The notes under the pieces: model-generated
Seen by the model: only the letters and a program-made list of their open reading frames with translations
Told to the model about the DNA's origin: nothing
Databases searched by the model: none
Part shown: positions 1,703-61,347 of the stretch, one piece after another
How positions within the stretch are numbered: position 1 is the stretch's first letter
Layout of the letters: each line of letters starts with the position of its first letter
Position numbers and translations under genes: made by a program
Assembly: GCA_902790675.1 (NCBI GenBank)
Contig: CADASU010000005.1
Location: 20,301 to 84,300, forward strand
DNA: 64,000 nucleotides
Direction: 5' to 3'
Source: Oscillospiraceae bacterium
GTDB lineage: Bacteria > Bacillota > Clostridia > Oscillospirales > Ruminococcaceae

Positions 1703-2213
1703 AAAACAGTCCTTCTAATGGTCTTATATAAATTAAATTATTATCTAACTCTACATCAATTACAACATCATTTATAACCGGAATTAACCGTTCAACATTA
1801 TTATCATCAACAACTCTATAAACGTCATTGGCGCCAGGCTTAAAAACATCTACTACTTTTCCATAATAAACATCTTTATTATCAACATCATAAACACGCA
1901 TGTCAATTAAATCCTGAATAAAATACATACCGTCAGATAATACTATATCATTTCTATTTACATAAACAATTTTTCCAACTATCTCTTTTGCACATTCAAT
2001 AGAATCTATTCCCTCAAATTTAACTATAACCGCATTTTTCAAAATTTTAGCATTTTCAATATGTTTGAATGACTTACCTTCACAGTCAAAAAACAAATGC
2101 GACAATCCTGCTATAATTGAAGAATCATCGCACCAAGGCACTATTTTTACATCACCTTTAATTCCATGTGTTCTTACTATTCTTCCTATTTCCAAAAAAA
2201 TTTTTTTACTCAT
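1695..2213 (-). CDS. rimM: 16S rRNA processing protein RimM
   Basis: IGRIVRTHGIKGDVKI N-terminal pattern, operon context, and an 8-nt overlap with trmD. Confidence 0.9.
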   Translation of the reverse strand: MSKKIFLEIGRIVRTHGIKGDVKIVPWCDDSSIIAGLSHLFFDCEGKSFKHIENAKILKNAVIVKFEGIDSIECAKEIVGKIVYVNRNDIVLSDGMYFIQDLIDMRVYDVDNKDVYYGKVVDVFKPGANDVYRVVDDNNVERLIPVINDVVIDVELDNNLIYIRPLEGLFYD

Positions 2214-2262
2214 AAGTACAACTCACATTAAACATACACTAAAAAATTCTATATTCAAAGCA

Positions 2263-2496
2263 CTAATTTATCTCGACAATAACCCTGTTTCCTAATCTAT
2301 TTGCTGCTGCTCTCATAACAACCCTTATAGCTTTAGCTATCCTTCCTTGCTTGCCAATAACACGACCTTTATCTTCTGTTGCAACTTCAAGATGATATAC
2401 TATTATTCCGTCTTCATTAGGATCATCAACTATTACATTAACTGCTTCCTTATTTTCCACAAGTCCTTTAGCCATTTCAATTAATAAATCTTTCAT
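2263..2496 (-). CDS. KH-domain RNA-binding protein (YlqC/UPF0109 family)
   Basis: GRVIGKQGRIAKAIR GxxG KH loop, positioned between rpsP and rimM. Start trimmed to ATG 2496 behind GGAGGG. Confidence 0.85.
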   Translation of the reverse strand: MKDLLIEMAKGLVENKEAVNVIVDDPNEDGIIVYHLEVATEDKGRVIGKQGRIAKAIRVVMRAAANRLGNRVIVEIN

Positions 2497-2519
2497 TGTA
2501 AACCCTCCAAACATTAATA

Positions 2520-2759
2520 TTATATATTATTTTCTTTAAACAATCTTTTTACTGTATCTGTTGGCTTAGCTCCAGTACCAACCCAGTATTTTACCTTGTC
2601 AGCATCTATATTAAACATAGATTGTTTATTAGATGGATCATAAGTTCCAATTTCTTCGATAAATCTTCCATCACGTGAATATCTAGAATCTGCAACCACA
2701 ACCCTATAAAAGGGAGCCTTCTTTGCACCCATTCTTCTTAGTCTTATTTTTACAGCCAT
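2520..2759 (-). CDS. rpsP: 30S ribosomal protein S16
   Basis: Canonical N-terminus [26 protein letters not shown]. Confidence 0.95.
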
Positions 2760-2820
2760 TATTTTCCTCCTACAAAACTTTTTATTTTATATCATAAATA
2801 TGCTTTAAATCGTTTAATCA

Positions 2821-4161
2821 TTAGAACATTCCTAATCCAGAAAGCAAACGTTTTTTTCTACGTTTTCCACGTCCACCTAGCTGCTTAAACATTTTTTGCA
2901 TTTGTTCAAACTGCTTCAAAAGCTGATTAATATCAGTTACAGATGTTCCACTACCTGCAGCTATCCTTCTCTTTCGATGAGAATCTATAATAGATGGTTT
3001 TTCGCGCTCTTTATTAGTCATGGATAATATTATAGCTTGCATTTTTACTATTCTGCTTTCTCCGGTTTCAATGTCCTTGTCTTTGATTTTATTTGCAACT
3101 CCAGGGATCATAGACACAATATCTCTCACAGAACCCAGCTTCTTTATTTGATTCATCTGTTCTAAAAGGTCATTCATATCAAACTTATTATTTTTCATTT
3201 TTTTGGATATTTTTTCAACATCCTTAATTTTTATATTAGTTTCCGCTTTCTCTATAAGAGTTAAAACATCGCCCATTCCCAGTATTCTAGATGCCATTCT
3301 ATCCGGCTGAAATAATTCCAAATCACCAAGTTTTTCGCCTACTCCAACGAATTTTATTGGCTTACCAACAACATCTAAAATTGATAACGCTGCTCCACCT
3401 CTAGTATCTCCATCAAGCTTTGTTAATACCACTCCAGTTATATCAAGCTTCTTATCAAAAACCTCAGCAACATTAACTGCATCTTGACCAGTCATAGAGT
3501 CCACAACAAGCAATATTTCACTAGGACTTATACAGTTCTTGATATTCTGTAATTCAAACATAAGCTCGTCATCTACATGTAACCTACCAGCAGTGTCCAA
3601 AACAACAATATCATGCCCGTAATCTTTAGCATATTTTAAAGATTCCTTAGCAATAATAACCGGATCAGAGTTTCCCATCTCAAAAACATGAGCTCCAACT
3701 TGTTCTCCAACAATTTTCAACTGATCTATAGCAGCAGGCCTGTAAACATCACAAGCAACTAAAAGAGGTCTATGTCCTTTACCCATAAAATGCTTAGCTA
3801 TCTTTGCACAATGCGTTGTTTTACCACTTCCCTGCAACCCACACATCATAATAATACACGGCGGTTTAGAAGGAAAATGAATCACACTTCCCTCACTTCC
3901 CATCAAAGAAGTAAGCTCTTCATCTACTATTTTTATAACTTGCTGCCCAGGAGTTAAGCTATCAAGAACCACAGAACCAATCGAACGTTCAGTTAAACGA
4001 TCAACAAACCGTTTAACCACTTTGTAATTAACATCAGCTTCAAGCAAAGCTAACTTAATCTCACGCATCGCAACTTTAACGTCATTTTCAGTTAACTTTC
4101 CTTTAGACCGAAGCTTTTTAAAAACATTTGATAATTTTCCAGATAAACTTTCAAATACCAT
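2821..4161 (-). CDS. ffh: Signal recognition particle protein Ffh
   Basis: SRP54 GTPase motifs GLQGSGKTT, DTAGR and TKLDGD, plus a Met-rich C-terminal M domain. Start trimmed to MVFESLSGKL. Confidence 0.95.
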   Translation of the reverse strand: MVFESLSGKLSNVFKKLRSKGKLTENDVKVAMREIKLALLEADVNYKVVKRFVDRLTERSIGSVVLDSLTPGQQVIKIVDEELTSLMGSEGSVIHFPSKPPCIIMMCGLQGSGKTTHCAKIAKHFMGKGHRPLLVACDVYRPAAIDQLKIVGEQVGAHVFEMGNSDPVIIAKESLKYAKDYGHDIVVLDTAGRLHVDDELMFELQNIKNCISPSEILLVVDSMTGQDAVNVAEVFDKKLDITGVVLTKLDGDTRGGAALSILDVVGKPIKFVGVGEKLGDLELFQPDRMASRILGMGDVLTLIEKAETNIKIKDVEKISKKMKNNKFDMNDLLEQMNQIKKLGSVRDIVSMIPGVANKIKDKDIETGESRIVKMQAIILSMTNKEREKPSIIDSHRKRRIAAGSGTSVTDINQLLKQFEQMQKMFKQLGGRGKRRKKRLLSGLGMF

Positions 4162-4162
4162 T

Positions 4163-4510
4163 CTAATCCTCCGATCTCTCAATAATCTTATTAACTAGAT
4201 TATTTATTTGTGACAATTTTTCACAATCTTTAACAGGCAAATCATCAAGAATATCTAATATATCACAAGATAAAGATCGTACTTTCTCGTAAGTATGTTT
4301 CATCTTAAGTTTATCCTCAAACTCTAATAATAAAACTTCTGTCCTTTTTACATTGTCATGAATTCCCTGCCGAGTAATTCCAGTAATTTCTGAAATTTCA
4401 CTTAAAGATAAATCTTGATTATAATACATATCGGCGATGTTATATTGTGTTTTACTCAACAAAGAACCATAATAATCTAACAATATACCTATTTCTATAC
4501 TTTTACTCAA
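4163..4510 (-). CDS. ylxM: YlxM/UPF0122 putative HTH protein
   Basis: Small sigma-70-region-4-like HTH protein immediately upstream of ffh, which is conserved Firmicute synteny. Confidence 0.85.
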   Translation of the reverse strand: MSKSIEIGILLDYYGSLLSKTQYNIADMYYNQDLSLSEISEITGITRQGIHDNVKRTEVLLLEFEDKLKMKHTYEKVRSLSCDILDILDDLPVKDCEKLSQINNLVNKIIERSED

Positions 4511-4582
4511 TATAACACTACCTTTATGAAAACAAAAATATTACGACTCCCATTCACATTATACAATTACACAATAATATTG

Positions 4583-5398
4583 TCAAGATATTTTCTTGTC
4601 ACCATCATCACTTTTACGCAAGCTAGGAAATACCATACTTATATCATCTGCTAAATATTTGACAAATTCAGAAACTGAAGGCCTCATTTTATATACTCTA
4701 TCGGGGTCTGGATAGTACTTTTTTAAGCAGTCTATAGCCGTATCTCTCCACACAACTTCAATGGCATGTCTCATACATCTATCCACACTAGAATATGTAG
4801 TTTTATATCTCCTCGCTAAAATCCAATATATATCCCTAGTAATACATAAATGCGGATCTTCAATACACAACTCTATCGCATCTACAATGTACTTATGTCC
4901 CATTAAATGAAACATCATTCCCATTTTTTCCAGTCTTGTAGCAATTTTAAATCTTACTGATGAATATACATACTGTTTAAATACGGGAAAAATTGAAGCC
5001 ATAGAAAGACACCCATATACTTTTTTAATCCAGTCAATTACCAAATCATCACTATAATTTTTGCTGTTATAATCAAAAAATTTAGATATATTATGCACTT
5101 TAATATGTTCAACAAACCTGCTAGGTTCTAATTTCACAATAGTCAAAACATAAGGTGGATTGAATGAACAGTTATGTATTCTATATAACAAGTTCATAGC
5201 TTCACCTTGCTTCTCTTCTATCAATAAAACTACTATACAATTTCTATGATTAATCAAGAAATTTTTCATCTGCTCAAAACCCATATTTCTTATCCTAGTA
5301 ACAGATGTGTTTTTTAAACTGTGCAACTTACCAATTAAATTTCCGTTTTTTTCCGGATTATCCACCAAAAATAACAAATGATTTTTTCCAGAAACCAC
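4583..5398 (-). CDS. Spo0A C-terminal-domain protein with atypical (pseudo-)receiver N-terminus
   Basis: The C-terminal segment HLMGHKYIVDAIELCIEDPHLCITRDIYWILARRYKTTYSSVDRCMRHAIEVVWRD parallels the Spo0A DNA-binding domain signature (..KGY.YLR.AI...ITK.LYP.IA.K..TT.SRVERAIRHAIEVAW). The N-terminal half is receiver-sized but lacks recognisable DD and phospho-acceptor Asp motifs (VVLLIEEK where Spo0A has D-containing LDIIMP). Confidence 0.6.
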   Translation of the reverse strand: MVSGKNHLLFLVDNPEKNGNLIGKLHSLKNTSVTRIRNMGFEQMKNFLINHRNCIVVLLIEEKQGEAMNLLYRIHNCSFNPPYVLTIVKLEPSRFVEHIKVHNISKFFDYNSKNYSDDLVIDWIKKVYGCLSMASIFPVFKQYVYSSVRFKIATRLEKMGMMFHLMGHKYIVDAIELCIEDPHLCITRDIYWILARRYKTTYSSVDRCMRHAIEVVWRDTAIDCLKKYYPDPDRVYKMRPSVSEFVKYLADDISMVFPSLRKSDDGDKKIS

Positions 5399-8404: not shown

Positions 8405-9049
8405 TCACATTTTAATTTTAGGCTCATTTCCACTTAATAGTCTTTTTATATTAGCCCTATGCATAAAAACTATTATTGAAGAAATAGTCAATGCAAAAAA
8501 TACACGTATAACAGAATCAATTAACGATTCACCAAGAATTAAACATTTAATAAGTGTAAATACTGGATATGTAAAAGCAGAGACTATCGAACTCAAAGAA
8601 ACTATCTTAGAAATAACAAAAATCAAAGCAAATATTAAAATAACACATAAAAACACTGTCAAATCAACAGCCAATAAAACTCCTGCAGAAACTGCAACTC
8701 CTTTTCCTCCTTTAAATTTATAAAATACTGGAAAAACGTGTCCAAGCAAAGCACATATTCCAATTAACCCACTAGCATAAATTGGTGATTCTATTTTAAA
8801 AAACAAAAAAAACAACAAATTACACACAATTATAGAAACAATGCCTTTAGCGAAATCACCAATAAATGTTATAATTGCCGGAATTTTTCCAAAATTTCTA
8901 AAAACATTGGTCATTCCAGCGTTATTGCTACCATAATTTCTTACATCCTTGCCATAAAAAGCACGCGAAATCAAAATAGCAAAATTTATGCTGCCCAACA
9001 AATAGGCAAAAACACAACATACTAAAACTATCAATAATTGAAATTGCAA
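8405..9049 (-). CDS. plsY: Glycerol-3-phosphate acyltransferase PlsY
   Basis: Polytopic membrane protein with LLGSINFAILISR, NAGMTNVFR and GGKGVA motifs. Confidence 0.9.
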   Translation of the reverse strand: MQFQLLIVLVCCVFAYLLGSINFAILISRAFYGKDVRNYGSNNAGMTNVFRNFGKIPAIITFIGDFAKGIVSIIVCNLLFFLFFKIESPIYASGLIGICALLGHVFPVFYKFKGGKGVAVSAGVLLAVDLTVFLCVILIFALIFVISKIVSLSSIVSAFTYPVFTLIKCLILGESLIDSVIRVFFALTISSIIVFMHRANIKRLLSGNEPKIKM

Positions 9050-9061
9050 AATAGTCGCTCC

Positions 9062-10387
9062 TTAATTTTCATTTTTACGCTCCCTAATAATAATTCTAAT
9101 TGGAGTCCCCTTAAATCCAAACGTCTCTCGAATTTGATTTTCCAAATATCTTTGATATGAAAAATGAAATAAATCCTTATTATTCACAAAAATAACAAAT
9201 GTTGGCGGTTTAGTAGAAGCTTGCGTAATATAATAAACTTTTAGTCTCTTTCCCTTATCTGAAGGAGGCTGAACCCTTGCTGTAGCATAAGAAAGCAATT
9301 CATTTAACGAACCTGTTGATATTCTTCTGCTATTTTGTTCATATGCCGAATCTATCAAACAATATAAATCTTTCAGTCTCTGACCTGTTTTAGCAGATAC
9401 ATATGCAAACAAAACATAGGACATAAAAGAAAAATCATTTTCCAATTTTTTATTAAATTCATTCATAGTATTCGAATCTTTTTCAACTAAGTCCCACTTA
9501 TTTAATACAACTATGCTAGCTTTTCCCTTTTCATGCGCATATCCAGCAATTTTAGAATCTTGCTCAGCAAAACCCTCTGTTGCATCTATTACTATAACAC
9601 ATACATCCGATCTATCTATTGCCATATGTGCACGCAAAACACTATAACGTTCAATGTTTTCTATGACTTTAGACTTTCTTCTTATTCCAGCAGTATCTAT
9701 AAAAGTATATTTTTTTCCACCATATTCAACTGGCATATCAACAGCATCTCTTGTGGTTCCCGCAACATTCGAAACAATGACTCTATTTTCTCCTGTTAGC
9801 ATATTAACTAACGATGATTTTCCAGCATTTGGCCTACCAACAATTGCAACCTTTATGCTATCATTACATAAATCATCACTATCATCTTCAGGAAAATAAG
9901 ATATAACCTTATCTAACAAATCCCCCAAACCATGTCCATGAACAGAAGAAATAGCAAAAGGTTCTCCTTGAGCCAAATTATAAAATTCATACAATTCCAT
10001 AGGAGGTTCTCCAACGGAATCACACTTATTAACACATAAAACTACAGGCTTATCAATTTTTTGCAGCATATTGGAAATTTCCATATCTGCAGAAGTAACT
10101 CCACTTCTCAAATCAACAACAAAAATCACAACATTCGCATTTAATATTGCAATCTCTGCCTGTTCCCTCATCTGCTCCAATATAGAATTATTTGTTTTAT
10201 TTTCAAATCCACCCGTATCTATCAAAGAAAAATTTACTCCACACCATTCACTTTCAGCATAAATTCTATCACGAGTAACTCCAGGCGTATCATCAACAAT
10301 AGACATTCTCTTGCCGACTATTTTGTTAAACAGCGTCGACTTTCCCACATTAGGCCTTCCTATTATAGCCACAATTGGCACAGACAT
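9062..10387 (-). CDS. der: Ribosome-associated GTPase Der/EngA
   Basis: Two tandem GTPase domains (GRPNVGKSTL and GRPNAGKSSL, DTGG/DTAG, NKCD/NKWD) plus a KH-like C-terminus. Start at the second ATG, 7 nt after AAGGAGG. Confidence 0.95.
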   Translation of the reverse strand: MSVPIVAIIGRPNVGKSTLFNKIVGKRMSIVDDTPGVTRDRIYAESEWCGVNFSLIDTGGFENKTNNSILEQMREQAEIAILNANVVIFVVDLRSGVTSADMEISNMLQKIDKPVVLCVNKCDSVGEPPMELYEFYNLAQGEPFAISSVHGHGLGDLLDKVISYFPEDDSDDLCNDSIKVAIVGRPNAGKSSLVNMLTGENRVIVSNVAGTTRDAVDMPVEYGGKKYTFIDTAGIRRKSKVIENIERYSVLRAHMAIDRSDVCVIVIDATEGFAEQDSKIAGYAHEKGKASIVVLNKWDLVEKDSNTMNEFNKKLENDFSFMSYVLFAYVSAKTGQRLKDLYCLIDSAYEQNSRRISTGSLNELLSYATARVQPPSDKGKRLKVYYITQASTKPPTFVIFVNNKDLFHFSYQRYLENQIRETFGFKGTPIRIIIRERKNEN

Positions 10388-49472: not shown

Positions 49473-49862
49473 GGGGGCGTAAGGGATTCGACGGGAATGA
49501 AAGTGTATGATAAGCGAGTAGAGGAGATGCCACCTCTATAAAAGGCATATTTAAATTTTAAATGCAAAAAATAATGCAAGTATAGGCTTTGTTAACAGCA
49601 AAGCTCTTTTGGCAGCTTAATTAATTTTGCCAAGGTTGTATTCTAGTTTTGCTGCGAACTGAATTCAACTTCATTTGATTTTAGCAGTAAACAGTTCATG
49701 GAATATCTCAGTTCTTTGAACAGTGAATTAATGAGATACTCTATTTTATCGGTTTGCTTTTTGTCTATATAATATGAGGAATTTCTAACAATAAGCTACA
49801 CTCGTAGAAAGTTATACATACTCACTTTTCGGACAGGGGTTCAACTCCCCTCGCCTCCACCA
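49473..49862 (+). ncRNA. ssrA: tmRNA (SsrA)
   Basis: The 5' end GGGGGCGTAAGGGATTCGACGGG and the 3' end GGACAGGGGTTCAACTCCCCTCGCCTCCACCA form the tRNA-like domain. The internal reading frame GCA AAA AAT AAT GCA AGT ATA GGC TTT GTT AAC AGC AAA GCT CTT TTG GCA GCT TAA gives the tag AKNNASIGFVNSKALLAA, but the resume codon is not certain. Confidence 0.92.
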
Positions 49863-49882
49863 CTAGAACATGTAAAAATTTT

Positions 49883-49921
49883 AAGGCTTCCTGAGTTCAT
49901 ATTTTTCAGGAAGCCTTTTTC
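49883..49921 (+). terminator. Rho-independent terminator of ssrA
   Basis: Perfect 12-bp stem AAGGCTTCCTGA (49883-49894) / TCAGGAAGCCTT (49906-49917) followed by TTT. Confidence 0.8.
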
Positions 49922-50024: not shown

Positions 50025-51394
50025 TTAACTATTCATAAATTTTTTAATTTTATCTTCATATCCTCCTTTAAAAAATGCACATGTTGACTCATCTTTTCCG
50101 TAGAAATCTCCAGTACCCGCAAAAGCAATAACTCTACAATGTCCACCTCCACATTTTTCCCTATATTCGCAATTTCTACATTCTTTATTTCTGTCAAACA
50201 AATCTTGAACGGTTGTCAATACTGTGCTTAAATAATTAGATTTTGTCAATATATCTTTTAACTTCATATTTTTTAAATTTTCAAAATTCATGTTATATTT
50301 TTTTGCATATCCATTCCAACCGTTACATGGCAAAACTTGTCCATCAGGAGCAATGAAAATTTCATCTCTCGTGCGCCAGCAAGCTACCTGTTTAGAAAAA
50401 TCTGAAGTTTCATTACACTTTAGTGGAACAATGGACAAAATATTTGCTTGATTATCGGCAAAGCAAAAGTCTTTTAAATAAAATGCTACGTTCCAATTTT
50501 TTTCTTGTGTGCATAAAGTAAATCTATGTAAGCATCATAGCAATCTTCATATGATAAAGCTTTATTTTCCTCCGGAAGTAGACTCCATCGTAATGTCTCA
50601 GCAGTTCTATATACTTCAACTTGAGTAACGCCCATATTATTCATAAGTTCAACTGTGTCGTTAAGAACATGAATATTACCTTGGTGTATACAACATACAG
50701 CTATAACATAAAAATCATTTTCCACTAACATCTTTATTGCATTTAACGCATCTTTTTCTGCACCATCTACTCCTCTCATCCAATTATGATATCCTATGCC
50801 ATCAAAACTAACACTAAATGATGGCTTTATGTTTCTTTTTATTATTTCATCAATAAATTCTTTGGTTATAAGTGAACCATTTGTGTTTATGGAAGCAATT
50901 TTAACATTTCTTTTTAATAATTCATCCACAATGTCAAAAAAGTCATTTCTAAGAAGTGGCTCTCCACCTGTAAAAATAACTCTTTCTATTCCACAGTCTG
51001 CTATTTGATTAGCTATATCCAAACAGTCTTCAAGTGGTAGTTCATCGTTCCTGTTTTCACCATCAGATGCCATAAAACAATGTCGACATTTGTAGTTACA
51101 TCTTTCTGTAAGTCCCCACCTAACTTGATGAAAATACCTATTATTAAAAAATTTATATTGTTGATTTGTTTCTAATTTCTTACCTTCTTCGTTCAAATGA
51201 ATAATATTTGCGTTTAATAATTGTTTAATAACATCATTATTTTCCAAATCATGGTTTCCATCACATTTCTTTAATATGTCAAACTCTTCTAAATCTAAAG
51301 TTCTTACTGATGCATTTTTGTTAATATTAAATAAAACTCTTGGAATTCTCAACCAGCCTCTAAGACCTAATTACCTATTTAATAATAATTTCAT
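50025..51394 (-). pseudogene. Radical SAM/SPASM peptide-maturase gene, interrupted (in-frame TAA at codon 8 and a frameshift at an A7 run); may be a pseudogene, a sequencing artefact or a recoded gene
   Basis: Track ORF 50486-51352 carries the radical SAM core CNYKCRHC (CxxxCxxC) and a GGEPLL-type segment. Track ORF 50025-50438 carries a Cys-rich SPASM-type tail (CRNCEYREKCGGGHC; 8 Cys in total). The two frames are joined by one extra A in the A7 run (plus-strand T7 at 50497-50503), giving ...LLYAHKKKNWNVAFYLKDFCFADNQANILSIVPLKCNE.... Upstream, a strong SD (GGAGGG, 5 nt) precedes ATG 51394, giving MKLLLNR-TAA(51371-51373)-LGLRGW-(TTG 51352)RIPRVLFNINKNASVRTLDLEEFDILKKCDG, all in one frame. 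Confidence 0.6.
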
Positions 51395-51764: not shown

Positions 51765-52004
51765 TTATTTCTTGTTACTCTCAATTATATTAACTATGTC
51801 TTCAATTGTTCTAAGCTCAGAAATTTTTTCAGGCTCAACAACAACATTAAATTTTCCTTCAACCATTCCAAATACTTCAAGTATGTTTAAAGAATCCAAG
51901 CCTACTTCCTCCAGAAGATTTGCATCTCTTGGAATATCATCGGTATCCTTCCCAGTAATCTTGCTTAACTCTTCCCTAACCATTTTTTCAGTATCATTCA
52001 TCAC
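51765..52004 (-). CDS. Acyl carrier protein (cluster-dedicated)
   Basis: 79 aa and acidic, with a GLDSLNILE phosphopantetheine attachment motif (DSL). Confidence 0.82.
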   Translation of the reverse strand: MMNDTEKMVREELSKITGKDTDDIPRDANLLEEVGLDSLNILEVFGMVEGKFNVVVEPEKISELRTIEDIVNIIESNKK

Positions 52005-52036: not shown

Positions 52037-52450
52037 TTATTTTATTACTATAGTTAGCTCTGCTTCAGCTGCCATGACATTATCAACATACGTAGAACAA
52101 TCTGCTCTTAAAACTCTAAAAGAGTCCTTTATAACTTCCATTTTAACCGATATTAAATCACAAGGCAACACTAATTTTTTGAATTTTACGTTTTGCATTT
52201 CTGCAACAACAGGAATTCCGTCTATTTTTCTAGTATACCCAACAAAAGCTGCGGTAAGTTGAGCCATAATCTCACAGAGAATAGATCCTGGTACAATTTT
52301 TTTATAAGGATAATGCCCATCCAAAAAAAACTCATTTCCTTTAACTTTATATATACCCTCAGCACAAGTTCCATCTATACTAACAATTTCATCCAACAAT
52401 AACATACTATTTCTATGAGGAATTAATTTTTTTAAATCAAACTCCTTCAT
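52037..52450 (-). CDS. FabZ-like 3-hydroxyacyl-ACP dehydratase (hot-dog fold)
   Basis: LIPHRNSMLLLDEIV and GHYPYKKIVPGSILCEIMAQ match the FabZ patterns LPHR.P.LLVD and GHFP..P.mPGVL..EA.AQ. Confidence 0.82.
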   Translation of the reverse strand: MKEFDLKKLIPHRNSMLLLDEIVSIDGTCAEGIYKVKGNEFFLDGHYPYKKIVPGSILCEIMAQLTAAFVGYTRKIDGIPVVAEMQNVKFKKLVLPCDLISVKMEVIKDSFRVLRADCSTYVDNVMAAEAELTIVIK

Positions 52451-53389: not shown

Positions 53390-54640
53390 TCATACCTCCT
53401 TGTATCTAGAAATAACTAAGCTTGAATTATTTCCACCAAACGCAAAAGAGTTTGAAAGTATATTATCTATTTTCATTTCTCGGCTAACATTAGGAACACA
53501 ATCTACTGGACAATCTTCATCTGGTTCTTCGAAGTTAGCTGTTGGAGTAATCATATTATTTTGAATCATTAAAACACAAGCAACTGCCTCAATAGCTGCT
53601 GACGCTCCTAATGAATGCCCTATCATAGACTTTATAGAACTAACCGGAGGAATCTTATCTCCAAATACAGAGCATATTGCTTTGGACTCTATTTTGTCAT
53701 TCAATTTTGTACCCGTGCCGTGCGCAGAAATATAATCTATATCTTCAGGAGAAATTTGTGATTTTTGTAAAGCTTCTTTCATTGAAGAAATTGGTCCTGA
53801 TGAGTCTGGTCTTGGTGCTGTAATGTGGTAGGCATCTATGCTTAAACCATATCCTTTAATTTCTCCATATATATGTGCTTTTCTCCTTAAGGCTGATTCC
53901 AAATCTTCCAAGATTAAAATTCCACAGCCTTCACTTACAACCAAACCTTTTCGATTTTTATCAAAAGGTCTACACACGTCACTAGTAAGAGAAAGTAATC
54001 TATTAAACCCAATTAAAGCAGTTAGTGAAAAAGAATCCACTCCACCCACTATGGCTACTTGGGCATCACCATGTTTTATCCTATCATATCCCCAGCCTAT
54101 CGAATAGTTTCCTGCTGCACAAGCATTCAAAAAAAGACGTGATTCCATATTTTTAAAATTAAAATATTTACAAACTGTAGATAGAATATCTCCAGGATAT
54201 AAATTTTTAATAGCATTATTACATAAATTCTGATCTTTACTTTGCAATAAATTTTGAAACAAATTATAATTTATTTGATAATCTGCTTTTTGTGAGCTCT
54301 TACCCATGGTACTTCCTAAAGAAATTACCATTTTATTGCTTATATCATCTAGGTTTAGTTTACTATCTTCTAACGCCATATTAATCGACTTTATTGTCAT
54401 CTTTTCCGATCTATCTATTTCCGCAAATTTTATGCCATTTCGATCTGCTAAATAATGCGATTTGTTAAAGTCTTTGATTTCTCCAGATATTTTAACCCTT
54501 AAGTCATTAAAAGAATCGAAAGAAGTTGGCCCAGTAAAAACTTTACCATTTGATATATTTTCCCAAAAGGCATCCTTTCCAATGCTTCCCGGCGCCATGA
54601 CTTCAATACCAGTTACTACAACTCGATTCAAACTATTCAC
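53390..54640 (-). CDS. Beta-ketoacyl-ACP synthase (FabF/KAS II-like)
   Basis: RVVVTGIEVMAPG N-terminus, NACAAG active-site Cys, AHGTGT and GHSLGASA His motifs, NSFAFGGNNSSL C-terminus. The start is ambiguous (GTG 54640 or TTG 54631). A 6-codon mini-ORF (ATG AAA AAA GAG GGT GAA TAG) with its own GGAGGA overlaps the start. Confidence 0.85.
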   Translation of the reverse strand: MNSLNRVVVTGIEVMAPGSIGKDAFWENISNGKVFTGPTSFDSFNDLRVKISGEIKDFNKSHYLADRNGIKFAEIDRSEKMTIKSINMALEDSKLNLDDISNKMVISLGSTMGKSSQKADYQINYNLFQNLLQSKDQNLCNNAIKNLYPGDILSTVCKYFNFKNMESRLFLNACAAGNYSIGWGYDRIKHGDAQVAIVGGVDSFSLTALIGFNRLLSLTSDVCRPFDKNRKGLVVSEGCGILILEDLESALRRKAHIYGEIKGYGLSIDAYHITAPRPDSSGPISSMKEALQKSQISPEDIDYISAHGTGTKLNDKIESKAICSVFGDKIPPVSSIKSMIGHSLGASAAIEAVACVLMIQNNMITPTANFEEPDEDCPVDCVPNVSREMKIDNILSNSFAFGGNNSSLVISRYKEV

Positions 54641-54818: not shown

Positions 54819-55559
54819 ATGTCAAGATTAGATGGTAAAATAGCTGTTGTTACTGGTGGATCTAGAGGTATTGGAAAAGCTATTTGCTTAAAATTAGCTG
54901 AACATGGAGCCAATGTTTCTTTTGTTTATGCCAACAATAAAGAAAAAGCTGATTCTACTATTAAAGAATTGTCTAATTTTAATAATGATGGTTCAGCTTA
55001 CAAATGCGATGTGGCTGACGATTTAGCAGTAAAAGACCTAGTAAACAAAATAATAGGCAAATACGGAAAAATAGATATACTAGTAAATAATGCGGGCATT
55101 ACAGATGATAAGTTAGCTTTCAATATGGACTATAATTGTTTTAACAAAGTTATTCAAACTAATTTATTAGGCACTTTTAATATGATACACCACTGCTATA
55201 TGAATTTTATAAAAAATAATGGCGGAAGAATAATAAATATATCATCCGTGGTTGGCCTAAATGGAAATATAGGACAATCTAACTATGCAGCCTCTAAAGC
55301 CGGAATAATTGGTTTAACTAAATCTATAGCAAAAGAACTTGGTCGCAAAAATGTAACATGTAATGTAGTAGCACCAGGTTTTATAGAAACCGAAATGACA
55401 AGTAGTTTAAAAAATCCAGACAATATTCTACGTAACATACCCTTAAATAGATTTGGATCAGCTGAAGATGTTGCTGATGCTGCTTTATTTCTTGCTTCAG
55501 ATGAAGCTAAATATATAACAGGTTCAATTATAAAAGTTGATGGTGGATTAATTTTATAA
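54819..55559 (+). CDS. 3-oxoacyl-ACP reductase (FabG-like SDR)
   Basis: VVTGGSRGIGKAI, NNAGIT and the YAASKAG (YxxxK) catalytic motif; 246 aa. Confidence 0.85.
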   Translation: MSRLDGKIAVVTGGSRGIGKAICLKLAEHGANVSFVYANNKEKADSTIKELSNFNNDGSAYKCDVADDLAVKDLVNKIIGKYGKIDILVNNAGITDDKLAFNMDYNCFNKVIQTNLLGTFNMIHHCYMNFIKNNGGRIINISSVVGLNGNIGQSNYAASKAGIIGLTKSIAKELGRKNVTCNVVAPGFIETEMTSSLKNPDNILRNIPLNRFGSAEDVADAALFLASDEAKYITGSIIKVDGGLIL

Positions 55560-56494: not shown

Positions 56495-56735
56495 AATCAT
56501 TTCAACAAAAACTATCAACTCATATTGCTTTTTGTCCACAATATATTATATATATATATTAGTAAGTTATTTGTTCATGTTTTGTGCATATAATGTTTTT
56601 ATAAGTCATTAGTGAATACGGAATACTATCTATAACATAAAAAAGCAAAAACATGTAAAACTATAGATCAATTTAAAAAATCAATAATATTTGTTAATAT
56701 AATTTTAATAATTTTATGAAATTATTAAAATTATA

Positions 56736-56765
56736 TTGACTTATATTGTTTATTTAGTATATAAT
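56736..56765 (+). promoter_or_regulatory. Sigma-A-type promoter for precursor genes
   Basis: TTGACT (56736-56741), an 18-nt spacer, then TATAAT (56760-56765). It is followed by a short inverted repeat ATTGATGGG-TTTA-CTCATCAAT. Confidence 0.55.
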
Positions 56766-56850: not shown

Positions 56851-57132
56851 ATGACATTTAAGGAATTTTTAGAAAAACGCCCAGAAGACGTTAAAAAAGC
56901 AAAAGCATGCAAAACTATAGAGGAATTTAAAAAAATGGTAGATGGCTTTGGAATTTCTTATAAAGGAGATGCCGAGCTGCACGAAGCATTTGATATTGTT
57001 AAAAACAAATTATCAAATGAAGATTTAGATAATGTTGCAGGTGGCGCTTCTTACAAGCATAGAGGAGATCATGTGTATTACAACAAATTCAACAGCGATG
57101 TAATCACTGAGGGTACAGGTAAAAAAATATAA
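56851..57132 (+). CDS. RiPP precursor peptide 1, Nif11-like leader with double-glycine site
   Basis: 93 aa. The 65-aa leader is MTFKEFLEKRPEDVKKAKACKTIEEFKKMVDGFGISYKGDAELHEAFDIVKNKLSNEDLDNVAGG. It parallels the Nif11-type leader layout (..L.AF..K...D..L...LKA......v.iAK.aGF.It..eL....LSDeELE.VAGG). The core is ASYKHRGDHVYYNKFNSDVITEGTGKKI. Good RBS (AAGGGGAG, 7 nt). Confidence 0.78.
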   Translation: MTFKEFLEKRPEDVKKAKACKTIEEFKKMVDGFGISYKGDAELHEAFDIVKNKLSNEDLDNVAGGASYKHRGDHVYYNKFNSDVITEGTGKKI

Positions 57133-57190
57133 TAAATTTAAAAATTGAAACTAATAAGAAACATTAGATTGCATTTGGTCTCACGGAAAA

Positions 57191-57232
57191 CATAAGCCAG
57201 CTGCTGACTGCGAAATCAACAGCTGGCTTATG
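57191..57232 (+). promoter_or_regulatory. GC-rich stem-loop between the two precursor genes
   Basis: Perfect 13-bp stem CATAAGCCAGCTG (57191-57203) / CAGCTGGCTTATG (57220-57232) with a 16-nt loop. No T-run follows on the plus strand. Confidence 0.5.
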
Positions 57233-57367
57233 TGCAAAAAAACAACCAGTATATTTTCAACCCAATTTTAAACACCTTTATCTTTTTACAAATCCAATAA
57301 ATGGAGTTATTCTTCATGCTGTTGCTGTATGAAAAATAAAAAACGTAAAGAAAAGGAGGAATTCTTT

Positions 57368-57655
57368 ATGACGTTTAAAGAGTTTTTAGAAAAACGCCCA
57401 GAGGACGTAAAAAAAGCAAAAGCATGCAAAAATCTAGATGAGTTCAAAAAAATGGTAGATGGCTTTGGAATTTCTTATAAAGGAGATTCTGAATTACAAC
57501 AAGCATATGATTTGATTAAAAATAGCCAAAACCAGTTGTCAGACGATGACTTAAATAATGTTGCAGGTGGCGCTAGACTTCATAGAAAAGGAAGCGCGTT
57601 TCACAATAAAGACACCGGCGAAACCATAACTTTAGATTCAGGTAAAAAAGTATAA
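57368..57655 (+). CDS. RiPP precursor peptide 2, Nif11-like leader with double-glycine site
   Basis: 95 aa from ATG 57368 (AAAGGAGGA, 7 nt). The track start at 57329 adds an unlikely MKNKKRKEKEEFF extension that covers the RBS. The leader is MTFKEFLEKRPEDVKKAKACKNLDEFKKMVDGFGISYKGDSELQQAYDLIKNSQNQLSDDDLNNVAGG. The core is ARLHRKGSAFHNKDTGETITLDSGKKV. Confidence 0.78.
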   Translation: MTFKEFLEKRPEDVKKAKACKNLDEFKKMVDGFGISYKGDSELQQAYDLIKNSQNQLSDDDLNNVAGGARLHRKGSAFHNKDTGETITLDSGKKV

Positions 57656-57710
57656 TAATTTTAAAAATAAAGACAAACAAAGAAACTCTACGTTGCATTT
57701 GTTTCTTTGA

Positions 57711-57753
57711 AAAAAATTAGTTGTTGACTATTTTGTCAACAACTAATTTTTTT
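57711..57753 (+). terminator. Rho-independent terminator after precursor 2
   Basis: AAAAAATTAGTTGTTGAC (57711-57728), loop TATTTT, GTCAACAACTAATTTTTT (57735-57752). The stem is perfect and runs into a T tract. Confidence 0.8.
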
Positions 57754-58072
57754 CATAAGTTGCCAACAAAACAAAGTTCTTAATGTTTTTTAGTCTGATA
57801 TAATAAGATCAGTTGTTATAACTGCACATAAAAAATTTTGAGAATGTATTTACAAACTGCAAAAACATGATTTATCTTTATGTATTGTTTTAAAATAAAT
57901 ATATATCAATTCATTATAATCTAAATTTTTTAATAAAATTATTATTTGACGAATTATCTGGCGTTTGTAAATATAAACATTATTAAACACAAAAAATATA
58001 TCTATATGTACAATAAAACTAAAAAATTAAACTTTTCTTGCATACATTACTTAAAAAGCCTATTATTAAATC

Positions 58073-59102: not shown

Positions 59103-60875
59103 ATGAAAAGAAAAATAATAACAAAATTTTTATCAACCACACTAGTAGCAACATCTATTTTTTCTACTAGCTTAACTTTACCAGCTAGCGCAAACGATGC
59201 AACGTTTAGACTGATTTTTTCTAGCTACATGGATGATATTAATAATAGTTTTTCGGAGAAGAATCCAAAAAGCGGTCTCACCACAAACCGGATTGATGAT
59301 TCATTAATAAAAGAATTTAAAGATGTGATGGATAACATGGTTAAAAATTACAATGATGCAAGTGATTATTGTACAGACGATATAGATGCTAAGAAAAAAT
59401 TTAACGACATTAAAAAAGAATGTTCGAAGAATGAATTAATCCAACTTCTACAACAAAAGATTACTGACGATACAAATATTATATCCGATAATTTTAAAAA
59501 CACTTTCAAACAATTTATTAAACAAATATTTGATGCTGCATCATGTTTTATTAATAAAAGCCAATATAGAAAAGAAATTACAATAAAACGCCAAGTTCGC
59601 AAAGACGAGATATCTTTTGATGAAAAAAAATTAAAAAAAATATTTAATAAAGAAAAACTTAAAAACAAGTTAGATGAAAATGTCATTGCATACATGAAAA
59701 ACTTTGTAGCCCAGTCAAAGAAATCCATCCCATTAAATGAAGATGACACTGAAGAAATAAAAAAAGTTGTAGCCCCGGTAAAGAATTTAACAAATTCCAC
59801 CCAATCAAATAAAGATGATACTGCAGAAACAATAATTTATTACTTTAAAGAAAGGGGCAATTTACCTGAGCAGATTAAAAATGCAATAAATGATGAAACC
59901 GATAAAAAAACGATTAATAAAACAATTAAAAGACTAAAAACCAAAAAAATGGTCAAAGACGGTTATATAGATGAAAAAGAATATATTGTTAATTATTCCG
60001 TAGCAATACAATTTTTAACCGATTGTCTTAATATATTAAAGTCAAATGGTAGAATCGATTTGTATGACTACACTATTTCAAATAAAGAATATAATGATAT
60101 ATTAAATAAACACTTTAGAGATGCTTGCGTTGACTCCGAACTAATAAAAAATCATGATGATAACATAGATGGTTTAAACGCCGACATCAAAATAAAATCT
60201 AAAGTAGATAGCACATCTATCGACGATAGTGACGATAGTAAAGAACATATCGAGTTAGATGATAAAATTACTGCTTCAAAAGATGTCTTACAACACATTT
60301 TTGTTGGAGATGACATTTTGGAACAATCCACCGCCACCCTATCAACCGGCCATACTAACTATTCTATACCTGCTTTAAATGATATTGCAAATAAAAATTA
60401 TGAAAAAATGCAAAAATTTTCTAATAATAACTCCTTATCTAAGATTTTTATGTTATCTACAGGACTTGATGCTAGTAAATTGAACACTGAAAAAGTAGAA
60501 GGCATTAACACTCCCTTAAATAAAGATAATTTAAGTAAAAAATACTCATATGCCTGTTTGGGCAGGTTTTGGGGAACAAATAAAGGAATATTTCCCGAGA
60601 AGTGGACATGGACAAAAATTAGTGACGCCATTAGTAATATTCTAACATCAAATAATCTTGAATACACCAAAGAAAAGATAGATGAAAAAAATAACGTATA
60701 TAGATATGCATGCTTTTATGGAACATATGAAGAAGTTCCCATCGTAGTTTTTGTTAATTTAACTGATAAATCACTTGTTACAGCTTATCCATTATCTAAA
60801 GATGGCTTTGACAATAATAAAAAAGCAGCTTTAGGTAACAAAAATATTAAGCCTAAAAATCACAAAAAATCTTAA
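59103..60875 (+). CDS. Secreted protein with C-terminal bacterial-EndoU-like RNase toxin domain (putative)
   Basis: Sec signal peptide ending ASA-ND. The C-terminal region has LQHIFVGDD....STGH ... NKGIFPEKWTWTKISDAISNILTS ... EEVPIVVFVNLTDKSLVTAYPLS. This resembles the EndoU_bacteria pattern HIL.GD..GGGH...GK..FP..WS..KI...I......G..I.VV.....I.TAYP, but with about 90 extra residues between the GH and FP..W blocks. Confidence 0.5.
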   Translation: MKRKIITKFLSTTLVATSIFSTSLTLPASANDATFRLIFSSYMDDINNSFSEKNPKSGLTTNRIDDSLIKEFKDVMDNMVKNYNDASDYCTDDIDAKKKFNDIKKECSKNELIQLLQQKITDDTNIISDNFKNTFKQFIKQIFDAASCFINKSQYRKEITIKRQVRKDEISFDEKKLKKIFNKEKLKNKLDENVIAYMKNFVAQSKKSIPLNEDDTEEIKKVVAPVKNLTNSTQSNKDDTAETIIYYFKERGNLPEQIKNAINDETDKKTINKTIKRLKTKKMVKDGYIDEKEYIVNYSVAIQFLTDCLNILKSNGRIDLYDYTISNKEYNDILNKHFRDACVDSELIKNHDDNIDGLNADIKIKSKVDSTSIDDSDDSKEHIELDDKITASKDVLQHIFVGDDILEQSTATLSTGHTNYSIPALNDIANKNYEKMQKFSNNNSLSKIFMLSTGLDASKLNTEKVEGINTPLNKDNLSKKYSYACLGRFWGTNKGIFPEKWTWTKISDAISNILTSNNLEYTKEKIDEKNNVYRYACFYGTYEEVPIVVFVNLTDKSLVTAYPLSKDGFDNNKKAALGNKNIKPKNHKKS

Positions 60876-60939
60876 ATTAACAATATTGACATATTAAACT
60901 AACTATGGTACAATATGCGATAGCGTGGAGGTTTGGTTA

Positions 60940-61347
60940 ATGTATTCAAATGTGTCTTATTGTAGTTGCAATGATCAACTAAAAGGAAATTTGTACCAGT
61001 TATGGAGTTTTCAAAATGAAGGAATTACTCCAAGATGGCAGGCTGCATATAGTAATATGCATGATGAGTTTATTAAAGCTTTGTCTTCTGATGTAGATGC
61101 CGCTATTTCATTTTTTGGCGTTTTGAATCTTGATAGTGAAGTAGACGCTTTTGCTATCCACTTTGTAGATGAAATTATTAGCAATTTTAAAACAAAAGAA
61201 GAAAAGGAAAAATTTACAAAATGTATTAATGAACTGAGTAAGAAATATTCCGATAGTCCATATGTTAACTGGAATGTTTTTCGCTTCTATAGTGCTATGC
61301 ACGCCATAGAAGAGTTAAACACAGATGGTGAAGATAATTATGATTGA
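60940..61347 (+). CDS. Small acidic cytoplasmic protein, putative cognate immunity protein
   Basis: 135 aa from ATG 60940 (GGAGG, 8 nt), 64 nt after the toxin-like gene and on the same strand. No signal peptide and no family recognised. Confidence 0.35.
   Translation: MYSNVSYCSCNDQLKGNLYQLWSFQNEGITPRWQAAYSNMHDEFIKALSSDVDAAISFFGVLNLDSEVDAFAIHFVDEIISNFKTKEEKEKFTKCINELSKKYSDSPYVNWNVFRFYSAMHAIEELNTDGEDNYD

Follow-up and report, generated by a model that had tools for sequence, protein, structure and literature searches.

What do two small genes, standing in tandem beside a set of lipid-type biosynthetic genes, encode, and which of the neighbouring enzymes acts on their products? The question is raised by a 64,000-nucleotide stretch of contig CADASU010000005.1 from an Oscillospiraceae bacterium (the whole of which is hereafter called the window), in which a first-pass annotation, made from the letters alone, had read two short open reading frames (ORFs), here termed genes A and B, as tandem precursor paralogues with near-identical leaders and diverged cores. 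That annotation had also pointed to two kinds of enzyme nearby that might modify the cores, a radical S-adenosylmethionine (rSAM) enzyme of the SPASM type and a GCN5-related N-acetyltransferase (GNAT). Our analysis bears out the tandem paralogues, and sequence comparison supports their assignment to a family of the type known from peptides that are made on ribosomes and then modified post-translationally (RiPPs), with a Nif11-like leader, a Gly-Gly (GG) site and hypervariable cores. Beyond this, we favour, with a probability of roughly 55%, the reading that A and B are precursors of a ribosomally made lipopeptide: judging from the genes present and from analogy with characterized systems, the GNAT would place an acyl chain, probably unsaturated and delivered by an acyl carrier protein (ACP), on an N-proximal Lys of the core while the leader is still attached.

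Reading the region together with the list of ORFs gave the gene spans of Table 1 and the same leader lengths of 65 and 68 amino acids, GG coordinates and Cys-free cores as the first-pass annotation had given. There is no Cys in the core of either A or B, so the exclusion of Cys-dependent thioethers holds for both, and the two cores have a grand average of hydropathy (GRAVY) of -1.0 to -1.07. Gene A ends with a doubled stop codon, TAATAA. A longer ORF of 108 amino acids that would begin gene B at the ATG at 57329 was considered and is unlikely, all homologues starting with MTFKEF. The exact gene A protein is present on seven contigs, and orthologues of gene B were found at 77-89% identity. A Pfam scan of the two precursors returned no match. 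The NCBIfam model for Nif11-like leaders, TIGR03798, aligned to both, with 20.0 bits for A (E 6e-4) and 23.4 bits for B (E 5e-5), over positions 7-68 of its 68, the alignment ending at the GG. Thirteen of 19 relatives match the model likewise weakly, and the profile of the family also pulls in P0058, a protein bearing the Pfam Nif11 domain. By these matches, the leader is a divergent Nif11-like one whose formal membership fails on score.

The drop in similarity that had been placed at the GG site is borne out by the comparison of A with B, in which amino-acid identity is 80% (52/65) in the leader and 37% (10/27) in the core (p = 1.5e-4, Fisher test). Synonymous divergence (dS) is near equal in the two parts, at 0.59 in the leader and 0.61 in the core, and the ratio of nonsynonymous to synonymous divergence (dN/dS) is 0.16 in the leader versus 0.91 in the core. 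Since equal dS means that the halves are of the same age, it is selection that explains the contrast between leader and core, and mosaic recombination as its source is ruled out. Purifying selection acts on the leader; the core evolves almost neutrally or is diversifying.

Protein searches among 5.8 billion clusters returned 16, then 35 related peptides (P-numbers in the following, with L-numbers denoting related loci or contigs), and 36 family sequences, including further copies read from fetched loci, were analysed. The GG is invariant in the 19 members that were aligned, and the leader hardly varies. There are two classes of core, a long one of about 27-28 amino acids and a short one of 12-20 that is rich in Gly, Asn and Ser; 31 of the 36 lack Cys, and all 36 are very hydrophilic and cationic (mean GRAVY -1.36, mean net charge +2.1). 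In most members, GG is followed by a small Ala or by a Lys. In counts that are uncorrected for relatedness, a Lys lies at most seven residues from GG in 34 of the 36 cores, stands immediately after GG in 19, and is found among the last three residues in 26. This early Lys is the only feature common to long and short cores, and it makes the N-proximal Lys the shared candidate acylation site of the family. Other positions that had been proposed as conserved from A and B fared differently: neither the 'H-R/K-G patch' nor the His recurs across the 36 homologues, and the aromatic stretch and C-terminal GKK are kept in the long-core group (as a common aromatic-x-N/S-x-x-G/N-x-x-V/I stretch, with the GKK end in most members) but not beyond it. 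Three distant paralogues stand in tandem in L014 (8206-9290), and in L012 a third precursor (10001-10306) lies 5 kb from the cluster.

The putative acyltransferase is a tandem GNAT, whose N-terminal half contains a canonical R-x-x-G-x-A P-loop (RRMGVA) and whose C-terminal half is degenerate at this place (RHLYLG). An AlphaFold2 model made from a 70-sequence alignment has a predicted local distance difference test (pLDDT) score of 94, and Foldseek comparison of this protein with the PDB put tandem GNATs at the top (VipF, MAB_4324, the clavulanate-pathway tandem GNAT and MshD) and also returned a clostridial glucosamine N-acetyltransferase. Close relatives number nine among 5.8e9 clusters, and HMMER against 1.84e9 representatives returned 242 proteins at E<=1e-3 and 11 at E<=1e-30, most of them of ~290-300 amino acids. 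GTDB species genomes gave nothing when scanned with the single sequence and one unrelated, partial match of 30% identity when scanned with an eight-sequence alignment, which indicates that the lineage is absent from the species representatives; a JGI metagenome scan gave three short partial matches only, and tblastn against plasmids gave no match. Precedent for such an enzyme comes from the selidamides, where the acyltransferase NpuN is a predicted tandem GNAT with a P-loop in its N-terminal domain and adds the acyl group to Lys1 of NpuA, a precursor that has both a Nif11 leader and a GG site (2026 preprint, PMC13060382). Cores from selidamide clusters are enriched for Lys and Arg at their termini, and some of these clusters are without protease and transporter genes (PMC8784127). 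GNATs that use ACP-bound acyl donors are known in RiPP pathways as well, as in goadvionin (PMC8784127).

A candidate source for the acyl donor is encoded next to the GNAT. Read from left to right, a gene for transfer-messenger RNA (tmRNA) comes first, followed on the minus strand by rSAM/SPASM, ACP, dehydratase (DH), a protein like a chain length factor (CLF) and ketosynthase (KS), then on the plus strand by ketoreductase (KR), GNAT, A and B. The FabG-type KR is the only protein to reach the cutoff of a housekeeping model; KS (356 against a fabF cutoff of 493.75), DH and ACP remain below theirs, which fits specialised rather than primary metabolism. The best PDB match of the KS is 9s5h_B (E 3e-101), followed by Iga11, 6kxd (E 1e-83), and that of the CLF-like protein is 9s5h_C, the other chain of the same entry; these matches support a heterodimeric KS/CLF-like pair. 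Entry 9S5H may be the anammox ladderane FabF2/FabFmut pair, and the ladderane cluster also combines KS/CLF-like and rSAM genes (bioRxiv 10.64898/2026.05.19.726425). A scan of the cluster and of 30 other window ORFs (four of at least 650 amino acids and 26 more) gave no enoyl reductase (ER), so the acyl chain is probably unsaturated or polyene-like. A set of KS, CLF, ACP, KR and DH without ER is the layout of polyene-forming, highly reducing type II polyketide synthases (PKSs), such as those for ishigamide and aryl polyenes (PMC8358021), and the 'ACP/KS genes' of the first-pass annotation are thus better described in this way than as a plain fatty acid synthase (FAS). Of the 30 other ORFs, four match nothing in Pfam; the remainder are all, by their Pfam matches, genes for housekeeping or sporulation.

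Had no comparable pairs of precursor and enzyme existed elsewhere, the first-pass annotation would have been refuted by its own account; such sets were found in several related loci. L001, an independent contig from a metagenome, has the same sequence as the window. L002 is 94% identical over the cluster, with the same gene order, two precursors and an intact rSAM of 456 amino acids, and L003, L004-6 and L007 have the KS-CLF-DH-ACP / KR-GNAT block in common with the window, L004-6 being of the same lineage as L021 (99.3% nucleotide identity). In every contig that is long enough (L002, L003, L021), close relatives of the precursors lie directly 3' of FabG-GNAT and opposite KS-CLF-DH-ACP; the contigs of L005 and L007 end within a precursor. 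The short contig L008 has a precursor directly 3' of a GNAT with 48% identity. L012/L013 belong to an organism further removed (GNAT 41% identical) and lie in another chromosomal context; they keep GNAT, KR, KS, CLF, DH, ACP and two adjacent precursors. A precursor with a Nif11-type leader thus occurs in one cluster with a GNAT also in L002, L003, L008, L012 and L021. Between the window and L002, dN/dS of KS, CLF, DH, ACP, KR and GNAT is 0.07-0.34, which indicates purifying selection. Two details of these loci may be added. In L008, genes for the carboxyltransferase of acetyl-CoA carboxylase stand directly 5' of the GNAT (1-1888), which hints at a dedicated supply of malonyl-CoA; and in L007, FabG is split into 43 and 217 amino acids (8963-9701) beside an intact rSAM, which could be an assembly error or decay.

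The rSAM/SPASM enzyme, which the first-pass annotation had considered as a maker of crosslinks or epimerised residues in the cores, has a different history. In the window, its gene has a nonsense change (CAA->TAA) at codon 8 (51373-51371), just past a well-placed ribosome-binding site (RBS) and ATG, and an A8->A7 frameshift (50503-50497). The same split products are found on seven contigs from NCBI, ENA and Logan; with three sources and a second lesion, an assembly error behind the frameshift is unlikely. Elsewhere, L003 holds remnants (3619-4642) with two frameshifts and an internal deletion, and only the last 43 codons are left in L004-6 (L004 5871-6002), while the gene is intact in L002 (3109-4479), L007 and P0210. 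By these alignments, there have been at least three independent inactivations, that of the window included. The fragments in the window are still at dN/dS 0.15-0.22, which indicates that the loss there is recent. Because the enzyme is dead here and has been lost independently elsewhere while the other genes are under purifying selection, it is not the core maturase in this genome, nor is it needed for whatever function selection maintains in the remaining genes of the cluster. The intact orthologue reaches no curated rSAM family cutoff, the StsB and PapB models being far below theirs. Cores of type A (A[AS]YKH..YYNK..GKK) were seen only with an intact rSAM (L002, twice) or with the just-broken one of the window, a weak association based on three lineages. 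The lineage with the deleted rSAM (L021 1895-2770) has a 44-amino-acid core that starts with Cys (P0014) and a type-B core (P0003). Next to the shattered rSAM of L003, an ORF resembling a serine recombinase (1936-3318) lies in DNA of high GC content, which suggests that a mobile element inserted at this end of the cluster.

The following sequence of events would account for these genes. The KS/CLF-like pair, KR, DH and ACP would assemble an acyl chain, probably unsaturated or polyene-like, on the ACP. The N-terminal half of the tandem GNAT would take the acyl-phosphopantetheine and transfer the chain to the epsilon-amine of Lys4 (A) or Lys6 (B) of the leader-bound precursor, and a Gly-Gly-specific peptidase/exporter encoded elsewhere would then release a cationic lipopeptide. 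In relatives, the rSAM/SPASM enzyme would carry out optional tailoring; in this genome, it is inactive. We infer all of acyl transfer, acylation site, nature of the chain and export from gene content and from analogy. As to the site, the first-pass annotation had named the Lys residues of 'NK' and 'GKK' or the new N-terminal Ala as targets of the GNAT; acylation of Lys by the GNAT is what precedent backs best, but 'NK' and 'GKK' are absent from short-core members, which are served by the same GNAT family. Gly-Gly leaders of the Nif11-like type are normally removed at export by an exporter-linked C39 peptidase. We therefore prefer a side chain over the alpha-amine on three grounds: the leader would be cut after the cytoplasmic, ACP-dependent steps; the leader is far more conserved than the cores even though the rSAM, the expected carrier of a recognition domain, is often absent; and the early Lys is the sole feature common to long and short cores. 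Being hydrophilic and cationic, the cores would not be membrane-active peptides without a lipid.

Several observations weigh against this lipopeptide reading. The curated TIGR03798 cutoff of 32.3 bits is reached by neither A nor B. The early Lys is missing in two members, P0014 and P0044, and Lys has a frequency of 16% in the cores, the Lys counts being uncorrected for relatedness. The likeness of the window GNAT to NpuN is one of architecture, in the tandem layout and the N-terminal P-loop. A C39-peptidase/ABC exporter, a phosphopantetheinyl transferase (PPTase) and a malonyl transferase were sought in the cluster and the 30 other window ORFs scanned, and none was found. In the cispentacin pathway, the housekeeping FabI supplies enoyl reduction in trans (PMC10698177), and by analogy a housekeeping ER could yield a saturated chain here. 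Lastly, the family has orphan members in L010/L011 (L010 2143-2427) and L016/L017 (L016 8865-9140), which are surrounded by housekeeping genes and lack a GNAT cluster within 10 kb.

Scattered orphan precursors served in trans are usual in families of the Nif11 type, which blunts the use of these orphans, and of the tandem paralogues in L014, as evidence that A and B are unmodified or merely cleaved double-glycine bacteriocins or signalling peptides that happen to lie beside a separate lipid or polyene cluster. Such a reading could also draw on the promoter-like site and terminator that the precursors have of their own, and on aryl-polyene-type clusters normally yielding non-peptide lipids. We nevertheless consider it rather improbable, for GNAT and precursor remain neighbours over a range from 94% nucleotide identity to 41% identity of the GNAT, also in the different setting of L012, the extremely hydrophilic cores and leaders of 65-68 amino acids are unlike those of class II bacteriocins, and immunity or transporter genes were not found adjacent. 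If the peptides are lipidated, the chain might instead go to the N-terminus, as in goadvionins and lipoavitides, the leader being cut first and the GNAT acylating the alpha-amine of Ala1 (Lys1 in relatives). The known RiPP pathways with a dedicated PKS/FAS and a GNAT (goadvionin GdvG, lipoavitide LpvE) do acylate the N-terminus, Ala or Lys follows GG in most members of the family, and the weak sequence matches of the GNAT are the N-alpha-acetyltransferases RimI and Naa50/Naa30. Those matches, however, are at a generic GNAT level (E 1e-6 to 1e-2), no protease gene was found in the cluster or the window ORFs scanned, and strong conservation of the leader beside variable cores suggests that the leader is read by an enzyme of the cluster; moreover, cleavage at GG during export would leave no free N-terminus in the cytoplasm for an ACP-dependent enzyme. 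Taken together, these points make N-terminal lipidation unlikely in our view.

The two remaining alternatives concern the broken rSAM gene. It could have marked the key maturase, one that crosslinks or epimerises aromatic, His or Lys residues without recourse to Cys: the gene belongs to the ancestral cluster, its ~85-amino-acid extension before CxxxCxxC resembles by eye a PqqD-like segment for peptide recognition (with no significant Pfam match), and type-A cores keep company with an intact or just-broken enzyme, the rSAM-less lineage having other cores. Against this stand the two lesions shared by seven contigs, the shattering of the gene in L003 and its reduction in L004-6 to the last 43 codons, with the remaining cluster genes retained, the three lineages on which the association with core type rests, and the failure to reach any curated family cutoff, by which no chemistry can be assigned; the enzyme might also act on the lipid, as the pairing of rSAM with KS/CLF-like genes in the ladderane cluster would allow. 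We regard an rSAM-made product as very improbable. The same pseudogene, together with a relic of a third precursor, the split FabG of L007 and a core dN/dS of ~0.9, might alternatively mean that the whole locus is a decaying remnant without a current product. Here the six other enzyme genes and both precursors are intact, dN/dS is 0.07-0.34 for the enzymes and 0.16 for the leader, and RBS, promoter-like and terminator elements are kept, and we accordingly give decay of the whole locus hardly any credence.

With the lipopeptide reading preferred, the locus can be set beside known systems. By analogy, it most resembles the selidamides (kamptornamide, phaeornamide, nostolysamides; PMC8784127, PMC13060382) in leader type, GNAT architecture and Lys-rich termini, and goadvionins and lipoavitides in the supply of acyl-ACP; from each of the two groups it misses one defining feature, which by gene content is the lanthionine or avionin machinery with its Cys. 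In the selidamides, as here, a leader of the Nif11 or nitrile hydratase leader peptide (NHLP) type runs to Gly-Gly, a GNAT is the maturase, core termini are rich in Lys/Arg, and some clusters do without protease and transporter genes; the side chain of a Lys or ornithine at or near core position 1 is acylated there on the leader-bound precursor, as we propose by analogy for A and B. Unlike in selidamides, the window cluster has no lanthionine synthetase and its cores have no Cys, so that no macrocycle would form; the acyl chain, which there comes from primary metabolism, would here come from a dedicated KS/CLF-like/KR/DH/ACP set; and its host is a spore former of low GC content. Goadvionins, lipolanthines (microvionin) and lipoavitides likewise combine a cluster-encoded PKS/FAS and its ACP with a GNAT, the goadvionin donor being ACP-bound. 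These are, however, actinobacterial class III lanthipeptides or avionins whose N-terminus is acylated after leader removal, the LanKC-type enzyme and core Cys that they rely on are lacking in the window cluster, and they build the lipid with a type I PKS/FAS or a FabH-based FAS instead of a KS-CLF pair.

For the lipid module, the closest likeness is to the highly reducing type II PKSs (ishigamide Iga10-13/16, aryl-polyene ApeO-ApeC; PMC8358021), which have a triad KS, an inactive CLF-like partner, ACP, KR and DH, and no ER, and among which Iga11 is the second-best solved-structure match of the window KS. Their products are free or lipid-anchored polyenes and not peptide-bound, and the CLF-like protein of the window, at 310 amino acids, is very divergent. 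Among precursor families, the prochlorosins, which have Nif11 leaders, show the same pattern of paralogues with a conserved long leader and fast-diverging cores, some of them scattered in the genome; they differ in their promiscuous lanthionine synthetase, which is absent here, and the leader in the window scores below the TIGR03798 cutoff. An rSAM/SPASM gene adjoins small precursor genes in sactipeptide and ranthipeptide loci as it does in the window, where, in contrast, the cores are Cys-free, the rSAM is a pseudogene and no cutoff of a sactipeptide or ranthipeptide family is reached. Class II double-glycine bacteriocins have a leader of ~15-30 amino acids, an amphiphilic or hydrophobic core, and adjacent immunity and exporter genes, none of which is found here. 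A search of the literature for the combination of Nif11, GNAT, ketosynthase/type II and lipopeptide RiPP returned only the papers cited here and reviews.

A wider claim, for which the genes and the analogies above give some grounds but which we hold as tentative and on balance doubtful, is that the locus is the founding example of a clostridial class of linear, Cys-free ribosomal lipopeptides, in which a leader-guided tandem GNAT would attach a polyene from a highly reducing type II PKS to Lys. It would be the first RiPP/type II PKS hybrid, and the intact rSAM/SPASM enzyme of relatives would further modify 'YYNK'-type cores in a Cys-independent manner. There is a demand for lipopeptides of ribosomal origin, which are encoded by genes and can be engineered, as alternatives to non-ribosomal drugs such as daptomycin and polymyxin. 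Few natural routes to them are known (selidamides, lipolanthines, goadvionins and lipoavitides), and among uncultured anaerobic spore formers few RiPP lipopeptides have, to our knowledge, been characterised. If the lipopeptide reading is true, the locus would provide such a route from these organisms, and a compact one, joining a linear cationic peptide to a lipid with no need for a macrocyclase. It would also provide a dedicated five-gene lipid factory of the type II PKS kind and a leader that tolerates very different cores, as the making of libraries requires. Because the rSAM has been lost repeatedly in nature, products with and without its tailoring could readily be compared.

Table 1. Positions of the precursor genes, their flanking elements and the neighbouring genes in the window (aa, amino acids; nt, nucleotides; UTR, untranslated region).
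Feature	Position	Strand	Remarks
tmRNA	49473-49862		adjoins cluster
Radical SAM/SPASM pseudogene	50025-51394	-	aligned to intact 456-aa orthologue of L002
Acyl carrier protein	51765-52004	-	DSL motif; housekeeping ACP models below cutoff
FabZ/ApeI-ApeP-like dehydratase	52037-52450	-	FabZ models below cutoff; ApeI/ApeP-like Pfam families matched
CLF-like partner, 310 aa	52453-53385	-	N-terminal ketoacyl-synthase domain match only; catalytic-triad motifs not recognisable
Ketosynthase	53390-54640	-	Cys-His-His motifs NACAAG, HGTGT, GHSLGA
3-oxoacyl-ACP reductase (FabG-type KR)	54819-55559	+	TIGR01830 303.8 bits, cutoff 297.75
Putative tandem GNAT acyltransferase, 294 aa	55610-56494	+	Pfam GNAT matches
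Third-precursor relic	56639-56686	+	leader fragment KKAKTCKTIDQFKKSI; between GNAT and A
Promoter-like site TTGACT-18-TATAAT	56736-56765	+	11/12 matches, ~85 nt 5' of A; consensus match only
Precursor gene A	56851-57132	+	93 aa; region reading and ORF list
Gene A leader	56851-57045	+	65 aa; GG at 57040-57045
Gene A core	57046-57129	+	ASYKHRGDHVYYNKFNSDVITEGTGKKI
Conserved 3' UTR element after A	57133-57178	+	35/46 nt identical to element after B
GC-rich hairpin after A	57190-57233	+	without U-tract; homologous to gene B terminator
Gene B RBS	57350-57359	+	GAAAAGGAGG
Precursor gene B	57368-57655	+	95 aa; region reading and ORF list
Gene B leader	57368-57571	+	68 aa; GG at 57566-57571
Gene B core	57572-57652	+	ARLHRKGSAFHNKDTGETITLDSGKKV
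Conserved 3' UTR element after B	57656-57701	+	35/46 nt identical to element after A
Terminator hairpin with U-run after B	57709-57754	+	conserved in L002 and L003

The repeat of A and B extends beyond the coding sequences. As the first-pass annotation had proposed, the duplicated unit includes the 3' UTR; the similarity past the stop codon is real, its score being reached by 1/2000 shuffles and 0/2948 random 120-mers from the window, but it runs over 46 nt and not ~55 nt. The element is kept in both orthologous copies of L002, with a homologous hairpin behind it. Predicted folds are stable after both genes (-29.7 kcal/mol, z -4.95, for 57133-57245; -33.2 kcal/mol, z -6.35, for 57656-57765), and changes between the two hairpins are paired across both arms such that base pairing is preserved. 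The hairpin of gene A has lost its U-run, which might permit read-through into gene B or stabilise the transcript. On the 5' side, A and B are similar in nucleotide sequence only around the RBS, and taken alone this similarity falls short of significance. The relic 5' of gene A is identical to 56892-56934 of that gene at 39 of 43 nt and is recovered by tblastn too, and L003 has a fuller pseudogene copy of a precursor, with in-frame stops, at the same relative position (9601-9790). These relic copies indicate that the precursor array gains and loses members.

The GC content of the cluster, 29.3%, does not differ from that of its flanks, and a search for a second, att-like copy of the tmRNA 3' end, such as an integrated island would show, gave none. 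Nucleotide homology between the window and L002 starts ~20 nt past the 3' end of the tmRNA (region 49473-49883); the left flank of L002 differs (a GtrA-like protein and an amine oxidase) and its right flank is the same as that of the window (dtd, spoIIIA). Downstream of gene B lies a plus-strand gene (59103-60875) for a signal-peptide protein of 590 amino acids with no firm Pfam match and a weak C-terminal match to bacterial EndoU nuclease (E 0.03), followed by a 140-amino-acid ORF without a match (60925-61347, plus strand). The two may be a secreted toxin/immunity pair, and counterparts of the two ORFs flank the cluster in L002 and L003.

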